A stretch of 64,000 nt of DNA from positions 320,001-384,000 of the forward strand of contig CBDAOC010000019.1 in the NCBI GenBank assembly GCA_965197925.1, in the 5' to 3' direction. The stretch is from Nitrososphaerales archaeon. Its GTDB lineage: Archaea; Thermoproteota; Nitrososphaeria; Nitrososphaerales; UBA213. Shown piece after piece: positions 26,574 to 43,435 of this stretch (position 1 is the first letter of the stretch; every line of letters starts with the position of its first letter). Under the pieces are notes generated by a model. The model worked only from the letters and a program-made list of their open reading frames with translations, did not search any database and had not been told where the DNA came from. Position numbers and translations under genes: made by a program.

Positions 26574-26693
26574 AATTTATATACGGAGAGCTATTCAAAT
26601 TTATATACGGAGAGCTATTCAAATTTATATACGGAGAGCTATTCAAATTTATATACGGAGAGCTATTCAAATTTATATACGGAGAGCTATTCA
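26574..26693 (+). repeat. Five perfect 24-bp tandem repeats
   Basis: AATTTATATACGGAGAGCTATTCA x5, no spacers. Confidence 0.97.
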
Positions 26694-26747
26694 ATCTAAT
26701 AAAATATGCCATATTTATATAACATCATTAGTTGGATATGAAAATAA

Positions 26748-31245: not shown

Positions 31246-31383
31246 TTATCCCCCACCAGTTGCTGTATCAAACAAACAGCATTCACAATCATCTCTTTCT
31301 CCACAAAAGGGGCAAACGCAAACACATGACTCGACTGAAATACCACAAAAATCGCATAAAGCAATCTCCTCGGTGTCACTCAT
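31246..31383 (-). CDS. 45-aa Cys-rich micropeptide (not in ORF track)
   Basis: MSDTEEIALCDFCGISVESCVCVCPFCGERDDCECCLFDTATGGG; 9 Cys. Confidence 0.75.
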   Translation of the reverse strand: MSDTEEIALCDFCGISVESCVCVCPFCGERDDCECCLFDTATGGG

Positions 31384-31495
31384 AAACATATTTTGTACAA
31401 CATTGTATTAATAGTTTTTATGAACAAGAATTGAGGACTGGAAATCCTCTCACTAGTGCTATGATTAAAATAAAAGAATCTAATTTTAATTATGC

Positions 31496-33195: not shown

Positions 33196-33867
33196 TCAAC
33201 AATTGTTTTCTTTCAAAGATTCCAGGTACTGGTGTTTTACGAATTGAATTAACTTGATTGCATCCTCCTCCTTCAAGCTTTTTCTATGAGTTTTCACATA
33301 TTGCTCCATGCGTTCAAGCACTTGATCTTCTACTATTCCTTTTGCTCTATTGAACAGTTCTCCATAAGTTCGATCTGGAAAGTAGATACGTTTTGCAGTT
33401 TTCTTCAAGATCCTCTTTGTCTCCCCGTCTATTATTCCATCTTTGCAAGCATGATATAATGTATAGCGAATGTCAATCAAAGCTTCAGATTCTAATTTGT
33501 AATTTTGTATTGAAAAGGTAACTGCCACTTCATCATCTGAATCTAATATACCTTTTTTATAAAGTTCGAATATTTTTCCTATACCCTTCATTCCAAATTT
33601 TTCCAGCTCTACAGCACGCAATGCTCCTAAGCTTGCTGCTCCAATTACAAATACATCCTTCTTTTTCAATAATTTGTAAACTTCAATTGGTGTGGGAGGG
33701 TAATCTTGTAGAAAAACACCGTCTATGAATCCTATTAATTGGGCATCTGTTTTTAGAATTTCATTAAAATCCCCCTTTCTAGCTGGTGGCCTGAAATCTG
33801 CAAAAGGGAGTATTCTCTTGGCCAACTCCAGTTTCAAACTTGGACCCAAAAAAATGATAGGTAACAT
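33196..33867 (-). CDS. tfuA: TfuA-like protein (YcaO partner for thioamidation)
   Basis: IFLGPSL, PPARKGD, IDGVF, GAASLGALRAVEL..GM.GIG.IF, DDEVAV, SEALIDIR. Confidence 0.93.
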   Translation of the reverse strand: MLPIIFLGPSLKLELAKRILPFADFRPPARKGDFNEILKTDAQLIGFIDGVFLQDYPPTPIEVYKLLKKKDVFVIGAASLGALRAVELEKFGMKGIGKIFELYKKGILDSDDEVAVTFSIQNYKLESEALIDIRYTLYHACKDGIIDGETKRILKKTAKRIYFPDRTYGELFNRAKGIVEDQVLERMEQYVKTHRKSLKEEDAIKLIQFVKHQYLESLKENNC

Positions 33868-33886
33868 GATATACCTACCTACCTTC

Positions 33887-35221
33887 CTAATACCTTGGCC
33901 TACGAAAATATCGTCTGGCACGCTTTCCAATGACACCTTTCGTGACCTTAAATGTCTCCAAACCAGGTATTATTACCCTTACAACCGGGATTCCGATTTC
34001 CTCATCCGTTAAGTTAACTACAACTGCTCTGTCAACTCCAATTTCCTTAAGGTTACGGAGTAGCAGTTGTATATCATCAAGAATGTCAATATTTTCGAAT
34101 GTTCTCACCATATGAAAATTTTCCCTTTTCGAAGAAGGCATGAAAAGCCATGATTTAGTTTCTGCTGTATTACCCATTTCATAATTCATTCTACGAAGAT
34201 CATCCCGGGCTCCTTGGATATTAGCAGCCCTGGTCTGCGAAACTTCTGTTATTGCCCTTACTAATGCAATTCTTGCATCAGGATGTGTACCATGCCCTTC
34301 AGCCAAGTAGCCATAATCATGTGTAATCCATTGCACGCTTGTAGCGATAAAAGTTGGTATACCAATATCAGTTGTTATATCCTTAAGCAACAGAGGGATA
34401 TTTTCATCTAAGAACCTGCGTAATAATAATTCAATGTGGTTTGAATCTGTTCCAGAAGTATCAATGTCGGGAAAAATATTTGGATCGTCGACATATTCTT
34501 TTGATTCCAGTGGTTTTACATTGAAGCCATTATACTTGACTGAATCAATTAGGGAGCGTAAAACATGAAAATTAATTACGCTTGATCTAAGTTCGGCCAA
34601 GCTGACCGCGTCTCTCTCTATTACTTCACATAAGGCATGGCATATAGCCTCCTCCATAACATTACCAGATGCTAAACCATTGGTGTGAGAGAACTGGAAG
34701 GGATTAACGGGAATACCCCAAGGTTCATATCTTGATTGGCTAATACCTGCAGGAACAAAGACTTTCTCAGCCGTAAATAAATCCATACCTACCATGAAAT
34801 CTAGAGGGGAATCATCAACATAAGGAAACTTTAACGGCTCAAGCACATCATCTGGATGTATAACATATTTATTTCCATATTCTTTTGCCATGCTCTCATA
34901 GCTTTCAGTGATGTACCTATCGGTTTTCCTTGGTAGTGAACTATACCTCTCAACACTCTCCATTAATGCGCTTGTTTTTGCATGTGATTTAGTTGGCCCT
35001 TTACCGCTGTAAACCCAAATGTAATCCTGAGTACCAGGCAAAACTGCTGAATAATTCGGAATTCTTAGAACATCCATATGTGTAATATCAGCCAACCTTG
35101 TCACCCCAATTTTCTTACCAATTTGTTCTGCATGTGATAGCGTATCTTTTATTGGATATACTCTTGAGGAACCATCTGCCCACTTTCTTCTACTCTGAAG
35201 CTGTATAATGCCTCTTGACAT
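33887..35221 (-). CDS. ycaO: YcaO-family protein, TfuA-associated (thioamide-forming) type
   Basis: GVTRLADIT, SGKG, ALMESVERY, TNGLASGN, EVIERDA, RAITEVSQTR, VVRVIIPGLE. Confidence 0.95.
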   Translation of the reverse strand: MSRGIIQLQSRRKWADGSSRVYPIKDTLSHAEQIGKKIGVTRLADITHMDVLRIPNYSAVLPGTQDYIWVYSGKGPTKSHAKTSALMESVERYSSLPRKTDRYITESYESMAKEYGNKYVIHPDDVLEPLKFPYVDDSPLDFMVGMDLFTAEKVFVPAGISQSRYEPWGIPVNPFQFSHTNGLASGNVMEEAICHALCEVIERDAVSLAELRSSVINFHVLRSLIDSVKYNGFNVKPLESKEYVDDPNIFPDIDTSGTDSNHIELLLRRFLDENIPLLLKDITTDIGIPTFIATSVQWITHDYGYLAEGHGTHPDARIALVRAITEVSQTRAANIQGARDDLRRMNYEMGNTAETKSWLFMPSSKRENFHMVRTFENIDILDDIQLLLRNLKEIGVDRAVVVNLTDEEIGIPVVRVIIPGLETFKVTKGVIGKRARRYFRRPRY

Positions 35222-35307
35222 GAATTTTATTTTTTTGATGGTTATTAATGTCTATACAAAATACAAAATAATTAATAAGAATAAAAACCAGTTGATCAGA
35301 GATCCTT

Positions 35308-35481
35308 TTGGATAAGAATGAAACAGAGGTTCTGAATTCAATTTTTACTAAGATGGCGAAAGATCCTGAATTTAGGAACAAATTATTCAATGAACCATTG
35401 GAAGTTCTTGCAAAATTCGAAATATCTGAAAAGGCAAAAAACCTAATAGCGGATACCATCAATAATATTCTTAACCAATGA
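35308..35481 (+). CDS. 57-aa NHLP-clan (Os1348-like) peptide, divergent from ycaO (not in ORF track)
   Basis: MDKNETEVLNSIFTKMAKDPEFRNKLFNEPLEVLAKFEISEKAKNLIADTINNILNQ; hallmark DPEFRxxL..P..VL..F.IS. Confidence 0.75.
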   Translation: MDKNETEVLNSIFTKMAKDPEFRNKLFNEPLEVLAKFEISEKAKNLIADTINNILNQ

Positions 35482-38002: not shown

Positions 38003-38677
38003 ATGGTAAAGATATTCTTGTTCATAATGCAAAGAAAAAGTGAGATTATGGTTAAACAGACCTGTCTTCAAGACATTGATGCCATAGTGGCGTTACAGAA
38101 AGAATCCTTCCCAGGCCTTAGCGAGATAGGTGTTGTCTGGAGACCAGAACATTTGCAAAGACAAATCCAAATATTCCCAGAAGGACAGCATTGTGTAATC
38201 TATAATGGGGAAACTGTAGGTTCAGCAAGCAGTTTAATTGTGGATTTAGGAGATGACCAATATAGGTACCATACTTGGAAGGAGGTCACCGGGGATAGTT
38301 TCTTTGACAATCACAATGCAAAAGGTGATAGTCTGTATAGAGCTGACATTTCTGTGCATCCAAAGTATCGAAGACTAAATATCGCTACTAGGATGTATCA
38401 AGCAAGAAAAGCGCTTGCAAAAAAACTGAACTTAAGAAGGATCATTGCAGGTGGAAAACTCTACAATTACTGTGAATACACTTCTGAAATGTCTGCTGAT
38501 GAGTATACACTCAAAGTTTTGAAAGGCGAGATCTCAGATCCTGTGTTGTGCTTCCAGTTGAAAGCCGGTTTCAAAGTGATCAAATTATTACCCAACTACT
38601 TGCGTGATCCACGGTCCTTAAATTTTGCTACATTTATAGAATGGATAAATCCGGATTATAAAATGAAAACAAGATGA
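38003..38677 (+). CDS. GNAT acetyltransferase of the type fused or paired with carbon-nitrogen hydrolases
   Basis: FPEGQ, DISVHPKYRR, IIAGG, DPVL.FQL..GF. Confidence 0.88.
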   Translation: MVKIFLFIMQRKSEIMVKQTCLQDIDAIVALQKESFPGLSEIGVVWRPEHLQRQIQIFPEGQHCVIYNGETVGSASSLIVDLGDDQYRYHTWKEVTGDSFFDNHNAKGDSLYRADISVHPKYRRLNIATRMYQARKALAKKLNLRRIIAGGKLYNYCEYTSEMSADEYTLKVLKGEISDPVLCFQLKAGFKVIKLLPNYLRDPRSLNFATFIEWINPDYKMKTR

Positions 38678-39556
38678 ATAGTAAATCAATTAGAGTTGCA
38701 TTGGTTCAGTATGGAATGCGGAAAATCAGTAATTTTGGAGAATTCTCAATCCAGGTAGAGTATTTCGTTTCAACGGCAAAAGATTACAAGGCTGATTATG
38801 TTATTTTTCCAGAGCTTTTAACTCAACAGCTTTTATCCTTTATAAGAGCAAAAGATCCTCAAGTTGCAATACGACGTGTTGCCAGTTATACAAGAGATTA
38901 TATCCAAACATTCAAAAGATTGGCGAAGGAGTACAAGTTATTCGTTATTGGAGGTTCCCACCCGACCCCAGTAAATGGGGGACCACAATACATCATATCT
39001 GTTTACGCCTTCTGGCAAATATTACAGACAAGATAAGATGCATATTACTCCTGACGAGCGGATTTGGTAGGGGTTCAAAGGAGGTAATTCCTTCAATATC
39101 TTTGATACGGGAAAGGCAAAGATCGCCATATCGATCTGTTATGATATTGAATTTCCTGAAATTGCCAGGATATTGAGCTCTAGGGGAGTTCAAGCTATAT
39201 TTGTTCCCTTTATGACCGATGAGAGAAAGGCCTATCTACGCATTAGATATTGTGCACATGCGCGAGCAATAGAAAACCAGATTTATGTCGCGATGGCTGG
39301 CACGGTCGGTAATTTACCACATTCTGAACATATGGATTTACAATATGCGCAGTCTGCAGTGGTTACCCCATCAGACTTTCCATTTGCGAGGGACGGGGTT
39401 GCCGCTGAGGCTAGCCTAAATACAGAAACGATGGTTGTTTGCGATCTTGATTTGGGACTTCTGCAAAAAGCCAGAAACAATGGTACAGTTACTCAAATGA
39501 AAGATCTCAGGCGAGATCTATACAATCTTTCAATAAATGCAATAAACTGCAATTGA
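38674..39556 (+). pseudogene. Nitrilase/carbon-nitrogen hydrolase pseudogene
   Basis: FPEL, QDKMHITP, ICYDIEFPE, ARAIENQ; frameshift near 38980 and in-frame TAG at 39068. Confidence 0.88.
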
Positions 39557-41390: not shown

Positions 41391-42396
41391 GAGCCTATCC
41401 TAAAATTCTAGCTGATAGTTAATGATTGGTAGAAATAATATCATTTAGAATGCAAGAATATTAGTTCAAACTGTCAGGTTTAGTTTTCTTACTATTGATT
41501 TTATTAGTATTGTAGATAGTAGATACTAGAAACAGTTGCATTAACGTGTTTATGACACTACCAATATATCGCTCTATACACTATTAGGCAGTTAGCAAAT
41601 TCTACTAGCGCCTGATAATTTTCCTCTCTCTTCTCGAACCTTACCAATAACTTTCTGAACCTGTTATGCCAAGATGCGGTTCTTTCTACAACCCATCTCT
41701 TTGCTTTGTACAAATTCTTTTTCAATACTTCACCCTTATGACGAATGTGATCCACATATCCCCTTCCTAACTCCATATTTCATACTCCATACTCTATCTC
41801 AGGGAAATCATATCCCTTATCTATGCATATGTTCTGTTTAACTTTGGGCCTATCAACAACAATGCTACCTAATGCAGGAAAGGCTGATTTCATATCGTGT
41901 TTATTTGCTTCAGTAACTTGGATGAGGGAGGTACTCCTCTTCTATCAACCGGCATGTGACGTTTGGTACCTAGCTTGCCCTGTCCGTTGGGTTTGCTCCG
42001 GTCGTTTTCCCCCTAATGGACCCTTCAGTAACGCTATCCATGGATTGCCAGTCCCATCCCATGCTCTTCAATTCATCACATATTTCCAGCAGCCTCTTCC
42101 ATGCCTTCCCGAATACTCCCATGCCAACCCATTCCTGAAATCTTGCATGGCAAGTTGAGCCAGAACCAAATTCTTTCGGCACCTTCTTCCACTGGCATCC
42201 GGTTCTTAATACGTACAGTATTCCATTCAACACTTTTCTAAATGGCACAGCCGGTCTTCCAACTGTTCTTGCTGGTTTCTCTGGTGGCAACACTAGTTTG
42301 AACTCTACCTATAGATCATTTGGTATATGCCATATGGTCGACATGCTCTTTTTCTTTGATTTTCTCACAAATTTAGCTAGAGAGGACAGATCTAGA
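41391..42396 (-). mobile_element. IS5 family C copy 2, lacking its left end
   Basis: Right TIR GAGCCTATCCTAAAATT at 41391; homology stops at 42396. Confidence 0.9.
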
Positions 42397-42537
42397 ATTT
42401 TCAAGAATAATGTAAAACATCATGGAATTAAATTTAATTGCCGATGTTATTGGTAATATCCCACCATGAAAATAATGATTTAAATTATATCCCCATGATG
42501 AAAAAATAATGAATAAACTAACAATACCTAGTATATT

Positions 42538-43435
42538 CAACTCATCTCAAAACCCTACAATACATCAAAAATGATGCAAGATTAACAAATGCCAGGTAGT
42601 TTTCTGCCGTTCTTTCATATCTGATTCTTGTTCTGTGAAATCCATTCTTGAGCCATGCAAGGAATCTCTCAACTACAAATCTTGTCTTGCTGTAATGTTT
42701 GCAATCATTATTTTGCAAGATGAACTTGGAATTTATTTTGTATGGGATGCAACATGCAATATTTCTATCCCACAAATACATTCTGATGTATTTTGCATCA
42801 TTTTGTCTGCATAAACTGGTTCTATCTGTTGTATTGAATCATCATCAAGATAGTCTGAAATTGATCCTGTAACATCCATGCATTTTGTACTGTCATGTTC
42901 ATTTGCTGGACTCAACAGTATGGATATTGGAAATCCGTTACCCTCTACTGCGGCATGTATTTTTGTACCTGTTATTCTCTTGAATCCATTATATCCAGTT
43001 ACATTGCCCCTTTTTTATCAGGAATGGATGAAGAGTCAACTGATATTTTTTGTAGATTAATTTTGCCAGATTTATGTGCTGAGTGAATAGTACGTGATAG
43101 AATCTTTTTCCAGATTCCTTTTTGTTGCCATTTGTTTAACCTTCTGTTTGCAGATTTGTTTAACCTTCTGTTTGCAGTAGAATCATCACCATATCTTTTT
43201 GGCATATCGTCCCATCGGCATCCAGTAGTTAGAACATGGATTATTCCGTTAATGATTTTTCTATCATCATCCCTAGGCCTGCCAGTTTTTGCATGTGGTG
43301 GTATGTGTGATTCCATCATACTCCACTGTTTGTCTGATAATTCTTGGAATTTCATAAAATAATTTTAGATGTCGCTATTCATGGATCTAAATGGTCGCTA
43401 AAAATTGTCTAAATGGTTAGTTTTGAGGTGAGTTG
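42538..43435 (-). mobile_element. IS5 family A copy 3 (defective; 24-bp internal duplication in orfA)
   Basis: Same TIRs as 8023-8902; ANRRLNK duplicated. Confidence 0.93.

Follow-up and report, generated by a model that had tools for sequence, protein, structure and literature searches.

What does a YcaO–TfuA pair modify in an ammonia-oxidizing archaeon that has no mcrA, and what is the part of the small protein encoded head-to-head with it? Ammonia-oxidizing archaea drive much of nitrification, and the question arises from the 64,000-nucleotide stretch of Nitrososphaerales DNA analysed here (the window), in which the three genes lie together (Table 1). The ammonia-oxidizer YcaO–TfuA pair has already been published, and the YcaO has been on record since 2017 with no target assigned; our literature search turned up nothing on the small protein. 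Thioamidation is described for only two proteins, McrA and uL16 (PMC13063428, excerpt). The enzyme pair and its small partner point to an undescribed protein modification in ammonia oxidizers. We favor, with about even confidence, the reading that the small protein serves a three-protein thioamide synthetase as its coreless docking subunit, and that this synthetase acts on a conserved protein encoded elsewhere. This reading starts from computational observations, namely the genes, their joint distribution, an insertion in YcaO and the missing core.

Table 1. Features of the ycaO–tfuA locus, with positions in the window.
Feature	Position	Strand	Description	Family match
ycaO	33887..35221	-	444 aa; ATP-dependent backbone-activating enzyme, kin to McrA-thioamidating YcaOs	Pfam YcaO PF02624, 242 bits (cut-off 25.7)
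tfuA	33196..33867	-	223 aa from ATG; inferred sulfide-delivery partner	Pfam TfuA PF07812, 126 bits (cut-off 30)
YcaO insertion, ~35 residues	34472..34582	-	about residues 214-250; helix 216-230 and acidic loop; predicted small-protein docking site	
Spacer between divergent genes	35222..35307	.	86 bases, AT-rich	
Small gene	35308..35481	+	57-aa four-helix protein of NHLP / borosin-binding-domain / LigA type, coreless, TTG start	

All three genes are real and intact. As the preliminary description had stated, ycaO and tfuA are adjacent, and the small frame, whose TTG start lies 86 bases from the ycaO start, encodes the motif and C-terminal ending read from it and no Gly-Gly. Both enzymes score above their Pfam cut-offs, and the small product contains no Gly or Cys at all. 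A longer, GTG-started alternative frame for tfuA reaches 33936 and overlaps the end of ycaO. Contigs from four of four runs span the stretch without a difference, and this DNA may derive from any one of these runs. The host genome (98.7% complete) is amoA-positive and mcrA-negative. A putative TATA-like element, recognized from sequence only, is oriented toward the small gene at about 35272-35279, and relatives carry comparable AT-rich elements, judged by eye, ~25–35 bases upstream of the small-gene start. A sigma-70 promoter scan, whose consensus is unsuited to archaea, returned 8 sites against 10.3 expected by chance.

The small frame is a real gene because homologues occur in 80 of 85 tfuA-positive genomes. 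Across 26 aligned rows, differences at the three codon positions are 0.41/0.30/0.67, and the median dN/dS is 0.32 over the 63 unsaturated of 325 pairs, with 59 of the 63 below 0.5. A shadow-ORF origin opposite the 90-aa antisense frame at 35190-35462 was ruled out, selection acting on the sense frame; the other five frames contain stops in 10–26 of the 26 rows, which had been picked as open in the sense frame. A split-off YcaO fragment was likewise rejected (profile-comparison probability 1%). In RNA-seq of N. viennensis, log2 TPM values are 4.8 for NVIE_002450, the gene in the syntenic slot, assigned as the small gene by position and not by sequence, 6.2 for ycaO, 6.3 for tfuA and 14.4 for amoA (PMC13674081, excerpt); thus, small-gene transcripts do not outnumber those of the enzymes, with the reservation that short transcripts are under-counted. 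In the excerpted protein table of that study, YcaO is present, and the syntenic-slot small protein and TfuA are absent.

Both enzymes resemble those of the methanogen/ANME system, which acts on McrA Gly465. YcaO scores 277 bits against TIGR03266 (cut-off 365), and its closest solved structure is MJ1094 (6pe3; E 1e-33, TM 0.74). Its residues E88, E91, R92, E199, E202 and R203, which we take to be the ATP-binding Glu/Arg residues, are retained in 101 of 101 insertion-bearing rows. TfuA reaches 217 bits against NF033432 (cut-off 235), matches the solved TfuA 6xp8 at E 1.8e-31 and has 37 invariant columns over 16 rows. TfuA is a probable sulfide-delivery partner, a role assigned here partly on the basis of PMC13063428. 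The host genome also encodes three ThiS-family proteins (PF02597 matches), one with a Gly-Gly end, all unlinked to ycaO–tfuA. The two systems share adjacent ycaO–tfuA genes, the YcaO fold, the ATP-binding residues and a ThiS-family carrier. Unlike the methanogen/ANME system, ours lacks mcrA and any McrA-like motif, has sub-cut-off scores and adds both an insertion in YcaO and a third, NHLP-type protein.

The insertion of ~35 residues is new here. The segment from D204 to D281 spans 75–81 aa in 101 ammonia-oxidizer YcaO rows vs 39–47 aa in 85 other rows, and the insertion is found in all of the former and none of the latter. It sits directly after the helix bearing E199/E202/R203 and, in the AF2 model, contains a helix of its own. 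Of the 101 insertion-bearing rows, 64 have the small gene at the locus vs 0 of the 85 others, and the remaining 37 insertion-bearing loci have none in the locus DNA examined. Our tree groups ammonia-oxidizer YcaOs with the methanogen/ANME thioglycine clade, on a long stem; the same grouping is reported in the excerpt of PMC5589413. Sixteen positions are fixed in the ammonia-oxidizer clade and unlike the MCR type, a pattern consistent with a substrate that is new yet constant, an argument made as in PMC13063428 (excerpt). The ammonia-oxidizer YcaO does not form one clade with that of MCR-bearing Nitrososphaerales, and its direct descent from the latter was rejected (AU test, p 0.008) in a quick tree of 35 rows, which omitted 44 of the 79 rows of the larger tree, including long outgroups, and in which the long stem may introduce bias.

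The preliminary description had likened the small protein to the nitrile-hydratase-like leader peptides, including the Os1348 clan. The resemblance holds as weak matches and falls far below family level: 16.6 bits against TIGR03793 (NHLP, cut-off 50.9), 16.7 bits against NF038399 (Os1348, cut-off 40) and no Pfam match, close relatives also lying under the TIGR03793 cut-off. The family profile matches nitrile hydratase alpha at positions 13-36 (E 1.6e-5), the motif shared with both leader families. Among 48161 chains, only three reach Z ≥ 5 against the predicted model, all of SonA/LigA type, and their values of 5.3–5.5 are under the search tool's own bar for helical bundles. Model residues 8-50 superpose on SonA 3-45 (Z 5.4, rmsd 1.4 over 43 residues); Z is 5.3 for LigA and 4.9 for the fused domain of DesB. 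Foldseek returned nothing at E 0.001, its top rows (LigA/DesB type) standing at E 0.7 and weaker, and the ESM Atlas gave only leads under 0.9. With these sub-cut-off scores, the small protein is predicted to have the NHLP/borosin-binding/LigA-type fold.

What the fold carries in precursors is missing. In NHLP precursors, a variable core rich in Cys, Ser and Thr comes after a Gly-Gly cleavage site (PMC2887384, excerpt); among 45 homologues of the small protein, Gly-Gly occurs in none and 23 have no Gly whatsoever, and the chain extends only 4–11 residues beyond the last conserved helix position. Unlike NHLP and Os1348 proteins, the family also lacks a transporter, and it is mostly one match per genome and vertically kept. 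SonA comprises a domain (residues 1-53) and modified sites at 63 and 65 (PMC8429565, excerpt); its linker and core occupy 54-71, whereas the small protein stops at about SonA residue 52, at the end of the domain. Read-through into a hidden core is unlikely because the stop codons vary among homologues, which likewise speaks against a hidden core reached by fusion. Among 8000 candidates, a search for longer forms found three proteins, each of them over-called upstream and with an unchanged C-terminus, which is weak evidence against core-bearing forms. No further NHLP precursor was found in the host genome, the small protein being its only NHLP-clan match. LigA of LigAB and the fused domain of DesB, despite weak matches, offer a precedent for such a fold as a non-substrate enzyme cap, although they belong to dioxygenases and LigA has 132 residues vs 57 here.

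The small protein is predicted to bind the clade-specific insertion of YcaO. The preliminary description had proposed modelling this complex, and the prediction scores 0.73 vs 0.00 for the best of three controls, which were unrelated proteins and not insertion-less YcaO. Of 157 solved complexes, 116 attain the mark applied, as do 2 of 215 mismatched pairs; these counts are only approximate here because we used our own alignments. Runs share at least 90% of contacts, with a partner pLDDT of at least 86. The predicted interface comprises YcaO residues 217-248 and 439 and includes the last helix of the small protein (residues 43-55). Its most conserved contacts pair A16 (consensus), P20 and R23 (0.91–1.00) with L221, V244, D245 and D246 (0.82–1.00), and in the small protein, columns at the interface are slightly more conserved than the rest (0.54 vs 0.45). 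Catalytic residues are absent from the listed contacts, although a residue that goes unnamed there is uncertain and not excluded. The insertion had been recognized before this result. A parallel comes from the split borosin system, where the SonA domain embraces a loop that protrudes from SonM, and homologues form caps over the active sites of dioxygenases (PMC8429565, excerpt); SonM, however, is a methyltransferase, and the wrapping in our case is predicted.

Among the 251 Nitrososphaerales genomes surveyed (families labelled f1, f8, f11, f12 and f15), the three genes occur as a set in three of the four ammonia-oxidizer families. YcaO and TfuA occur in 7/7 genomes of f1, 10/10 of f8 and 64/64 of f15, giving tfuA in all 81 relatives in three ammonia-oxidizer families, and the small gene in 79 of these 81 (6/7, 9/10 and 64/64). 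Wherever the small gene occurs in the survey, tfuA is present too. In the fourth ammonia-oxidizer family, f12, none of the three genes was found in 65 genomes, all amoA-positive, apart from three partial small-gene matches (E 0.002–0.009). In five genomes (G051, G089, G081, G263 and G417), a search run without a positive control did not find the small gene. The preliminary description held that Nitrososphaeria have no MCR, which is true of the host genome and wrong in general, as mcrA is present in three of three tfuA-positive f11 genomes. These MCR-bearing Nitrososphaerales have a YcaO without the insertion, and the small gene was not found in them. The genome counts are not independent because related genomes share genes by descent.

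The proposed check of neighborhood conservation came out positive. The small gene is linked to ycaO–tfuA in 56 of 80 genomes, in all 56 divergently, with cases in all three families; in the other 24 it is unlinked and still kept, amid housekeeping genes. It is the sole gene that stays beside ycaO–tfuA across the three families. The gene maps, built mostly by sequence clustering and by eye and not by library scans, revealed no other neighbor family common to all three, nor any transporter, protease or tailoring gene that is conserved; the surroundings of P0031, P0034 and P0040, the most divergent small proteins, were uninformative. An undescribed archaeal thioamide pathway, as the preliminary description proposed, is supported as a non-MCR YcaO–TfuA module whose chemistry we infer, and a RiPP-type pathway gains no support. 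Unlike thioamitide RiPP clusters, the locus shows no core-bearing precursor and no tailoring or export genes beside ycaO–tfuA.

The target probably lies elsewhere in the genome. No PF02249 (McrA) match was found in the host or in three other genomes (G015, G022 and G092), with positive controls, and the best McrA-like 13-mer in 4186 open frames of at least 100 codons scored 30.8, within the range of shuffled bests (28.5–36.0; true sites about 68). YcaO and TfuA do not appear in seven of the ten supplementary files of Abby 2020, Table S2 (all families) lying outside these seven. By analogy with the methanogen system, YcaO would O-phosphorylate a backbone amide using ATP, and TfuA would free sulfide from a thiocarboxylated ThiS-family carrier to replace the oxygen. 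The 57-aa protein is predicted to wrap the helix-loop insertion beside the ATP-binding Glu/Arg helix, where it most likely maintains YcaO in an active or folded state or brings in the target. That target would be a conserved cellular protein, neither McrA nor a secreted peptide.

Between the two roles offered by the preliminary description, substrate or trans-acting leader/adaptor, the evidence leans to a non-substrate role, and the small protein as substrate is the main rival. It would dock by its leader-like helices, its last helix or terminus would unwind into the active site and be thioamidated, and the modified mini-protein would be the product. Its place as the only NHLP-clan match in the host and the only constant neighbor of ycaO–tfuA suits this role, and the predicted binding would fit equally. 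In SonA and proteusins this domain is the substrate leader, as in solved RiPP systems generally, and the last helix (helix 5 in SonA) can unwind into the active site (PMC8429565, excerpt). However, the protein has no core, no conserved Gly and C-terminal residues that vary between families, its last helix is predicted to lie within the interface, whose listed contacts include no catalytic residue, and neither the varying stop codons nor the over-called longer homologues suggest a hidden core; we consider a substrate role unlikely, though with an appreciable chance. A coreless leader might instead be a switch that keeps YcaO off until release. The coreless SonA domain (1-55) does inhibit SonM with a Ki of 3.9 µM (PMC8429565, excerpt), and the small gene is transcribed separately from ycaO–tfuA, divergently or at another locus. 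That effect, however, is competition with a leader-bearing substrate, of which the host has no other NHLP-clan candidate, and second YcaO paralogues carry a similar insertion; inhibition seems quite improbable.

The small protein could also have another job, the predicted complex being a false pass. The unlinked genomes, the shared descent behind the counts and the two mismatched pairs that passed calibration leave room for this, but head-to-head linkage in all three families and a predicted site that matches the independently found insertion give it only a slim chance. Amidine formation is known for other YcaOs, and the enzyme might use ammonia or an amine as nucleophile or act on a small molecule. 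The sub-cut-off scores of YcaO and TfuA, the long stem with its 16 fixed changes and a second ycaO copy without tfuA in some relatives are compatible with such chemistry; nevertheless, an intact tfuA accompanies ycaO in every genome of the three families and the host encodes ThiS-family proteins, one ending in Gly-Gly, and we rate a departure from thioamidation as very improbable.

Tentatively, and with more doubt than trust, we suggest that the ancestor of ammonia-oxidizing archaea may have rebuilt an MCR-type synthetase with a docking insertion and a coreless RiPP-type leader subunit, placing a thioamide on a core nitrifier protein, and that lineages from soil and hot springs retained the system whereas one family lost it. 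If so, protein thioamidation would gain a third kind besides those of McrA and uL16, with a natural leader in trans and a RiPP leader fold working on its own as an enzyme subunit. The target question becomes testable through the conserved partner and the defined, predicted docking surface: YcaO may simply fail in vitro without the small subunit, and the gene-lacking family is a natural negative control for a proteome-wide +15.977 Da search. The YcaO of E. coli, outside any RiPP cluster, likewise thioamidates a conserved folded protein encoded elsewhere, uL16 (PMC13063428, excerpt), but it is distant (our YcaO scores 34 bits against NF040716 vs 700), has an extra TPR domain and lacks TfuA and a small partner. 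The interpretation in the preliminary description is partly supported overall. Modification of a housekeeping protein by YcaO, which that description had set against its own proposal, is now the reading that we prefer, in which the small protein acts as a partner.

The cassette of ycaO, tfuA and the small gene is real and conserved, and constitutes a new form of YcaO-TfuA thioamidation system in which the small protein is the predicted third subunit. Among 251 genomes of the order with completeness of at least 80% (counts exclude the source genome, G000), amoA marks four families (f1, 7/7; f8, 10/10; f15, 61/64; f12, 65/65). YcaO and TfuA occur in 7/7, 10/10 and 64/64 genomes of f1, f8 and f15 and in 0/65 of f12, and the small gene in 6/7, 9/10 and 64/64; the f12 search for the latter gave three partial matches only (E 0.002–0.009), which were treated as chance. 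In the two genomes of these families where the small gene was not found (G008 and G081), ycaO is truncated by a contig end. The unpublished G255 is counted in the 65 amoA-positive f12 genomes, and the unpublished G248 in the 64 f15 genomes and the linked cases below. The f8 and f15 YcaOs cluster with records named Nitrosocaldaceae and Nitrososphaeraceae; f12 would, by elimination, be Nitrosopumilaceae.

The small gene was found in 80 of 85 tfuA-positive genomes. The expectation that it is kept beside ycaO-tfuA held for 56 of the 80, where it lies at most 3.2 kb from the tfuA match and head-to-head with ycaO in every case; in the other 24, for the most part genus g51, it lies elsewhere among housekeeping genes. 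Gene maps of linked and unlinked loci revealed no further neighbour common to f1, f8 and f15. Because related genomes are not independent, these counts represent one old association and not 80 events.

The source genome (2.9 Mb, completeness 98.7%, contamination 5.4%) carries amoA and a single match each for ycaO, tfuA and the small ORF. The preliminary description of adjacent, intact ycaO and tfuA with a 57-aa ORF on the opposite strand was borne out.

Features of the window
Feature	Position	Strand	Description
24-base tandem repeat	26574-26694		perfect, 5 copies; downstream of M20 peptidase gene
Cys-rich ORF	31246-31389	minus	47 aa; upstream of oxoacid:ferredoxin oxidoreductase-like genes
tfuA	33196-33867	minus	223 aa, intact, above Pfam cut-off
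ycaO	33887-35221	minus	444 aa, intact, above Pfam cut-off
small gene	35308-35481	plus	57-aa ORF, TTG start, 86 bases from ycaO start
GNAT acetyltransferase, then carbon-nitrogen hydrolase	38003-39556	plus	hydrolase in two ORFs (38674-39036, 39173-39556), probably one frameshifted gene
transposase-like ORFs	41558-43355		several, broken

The claim that Nitrososphaeria have no MCR fails for the class and stands for G000, G015, G022 and G092, in which mcrA had no match. The remaining three tfuA-positive genomes of the order, all in family f11, carry mcrA (3/3). A sampling of 300 further genomes from the phylum yielded tfuA in 27; the 3 of these that were tested all carry mcrA. The genomes tested fall into two groups: those that have MCR and lack the small gene, and ammonia oxidisers that lack MCR and have the small gene. 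In the f11 loci (L020, L110, L111), ycaO-tfuA is flanked by DUF2117 on one side and a radical SAM gene on the other. The ammonia-oxidiser YcaOs (31 rows) form a single clade (SH-aLRT 100; quick tree of 79 rows, midpoint root), which sits on a long stem next to the enzymes of the MCR type. Grouping them with the f11 enzymes was rejected (p-AU 0.008, 35 rows), so simple inheritance from the f11 lineage is not supported. YcaOs of many Syntrophales and related bacteria (L269–L306) nest among the MCR-type enzymes.

The small ORF is a true gene. Across 26 aligned homologues, differences at the first, second and third codon positions amount to 0.41, 0.30 and 0.67, and median dN/dS is 0.32 over the 63 of 325 pairs that are unsaturated. 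Pfam gave no match for it. Its proposed kinship with NHLP (defined in PMC2887384) and Os1348 (described in PMC7726476) survives in part: matches to both models exist, but far under the cut-offs (TIGR03793, 16.6 bits against 50.9; NF038399, 16.7 against 40). The family profile matches nitrile hydratase alpha (E 1.6e-5), and Os1348 and NHLP proteins are among its more distant matches (50 of 134 scanned). The AlphaFold2 model has four helices (mean pLDDT 88.5). Against 48161 solved chains, only three reached Z 5, namely a borosin methyltransferase segment (5.5), SonA (5.4; rmsd 1.4, 43 residues) and LigA (5.3), values that count as weak where helical bundles are concerned; next came DesB, Os1348 and a proteusin leader (4.0–4.9). 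These weak fold scores agree with the sequence evidence for NHLP-type kinship. Elsewhere, an NHLP-like 92-aa ORF with a C-terminal extension (L113, G208:C178, 3275-3553, minus strand) lies near a PF14518 iron-containing redox enzyme, a possible RiPP locus.

Complex prediction supports binding of the small protein to a YcaO insertion, in line with the partnership proposed initially. The pair (25 YcaO rows; 44 small-protein rows) scored 0.73 against 0.00 for the best control, passing a mark attained by 116/157 solved complexes and 2/215 mismatched pairs (a rough calibration, own alignments used). Runs agreed on at least 90% of contacts, with partner pLDDT of at least 86. The confident YcaO contacts, residues 217–248 and 439, correspond to the insertion, and the best-conserved contact positions of both partners lie opposite each other in the model. 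This pass could reflect memory of a similar complex; among the solved YcaOs found, identity does not exceed 26%, and the closest lacks the segment. That structure, MJ1094, aligns in two pieces with a break at residues 214–263.

The insertion, recorded before the complex prediction returned, comprises ~36 extra residues in 22/22 ammonia-oxidiser YcaOs and 0/3 f11 YcaOs (25-row alignment). Across 186 rows, in which some loci appear twice, segment D204–D281 spans 75–81 residues in 101 and 39–47 in 85, with no intermediates, and the small gene (E < 1e-8) occurs in the fetched locus of 64/101 insertion-bearing and 0/85 insertion-less rows. One insertion-less bacterial locus (L311) has a weak match (E 4e-5). 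The neighbour is missing from 37 insertion-bearing loci; among them are Nitrososphaera loci, where by the g51 pattern the gene probably sits elsewhere, loci at contig ends, and five second paralogues that lack tfuA. ATP-binding residues are retained in 101/101 insertion-bearing rows, and 16 positions are invariant in these rows with residues other than those of the MCR type. Second paralogues in some Nitrososphaeraceae (L187, L188, L189, L191, L194, L328) keep the insertion with no adjoining tfuA or small gene; the five included in the tree cluster as a single clade.

By homology, YcaO would draw on ATP to activate a backbone amide, whose oxygen would give way to sulfide (PMC7581889), the sulfide coming from TfuA and a ThiS-family carrier (PMC13063428). 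Three ThiS-family proteins were matched in G000, one with a Gly-Gly end. The small protein may dock round a protruding element of YcaO, as the SonA domain wraps that of SonM in the split borosin. The chief competing reading casts the small protein itself as the substrate, since SonA's last helix can unwind into its enzyme. Unlike SonA, however, the small protein ends ~11 residues before the position of SonA's first modified site. Its homologues (45 rows as cut, 55–69 residues) end 4–11 residues past the final conserved helix position; Gly-Gly occurs in none of them, and 23/45 have no Gly whatsoever. Since there is no core, the simplest role is that of a subunit that would stabilise or activate YcaO, or bring the target in. 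In the model the insertion begins immediately after the helix with E199, E202 and R203, which makes an allosteric link plausible.

A conserved cellular protein is suggested as the target by the near-universal retention, the single match in most genomes and the lack of export or tailoring genes. No McrA-like motif above background was found in G000. PMC13063428 describes uL16 as the second thioamidated protein. In the supplement of PMC13674081, searched by term, N. viennensis ycaO has a log2 TPM of 6.2 and tfuA one of 6.3; for the gene that occupies the small gene's syntenic slot, assigned by gene order only, the value is 4.8. The protein table lists YcaO, with TfuA and the slot gene absent.

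Ammonia-oxidiser homologues in the methanogen YcaO clade appear in PMC5589413, and the parts of PMC8120280 covered describe eight TfuA clusters in Thaumarchaeota and name no substrate. The passages and the part of one supplement covered in PMC7554672 gave nothing on ycaO, tfuA or the small gene. No account of the small protein or insertion was found in the open literature; subscription papers on YcaO/TfuA biochemistry may mention these loci.

Azole-type RiPP loci also occur in f15: an 820-aa protein fusing ThiF to YcaO, accompanied by a nitroreductase, in genus g57 (L324–L327), and an 88-aa ORF followed by ThiF, YcaO and nitroreductase genes (L329). Within the window, the broken transposase-like ORFs are, from their motifs, presumably IS5-like. 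The Cys-rich ORF, without a match in a Pfam scan, is found in related loci too.
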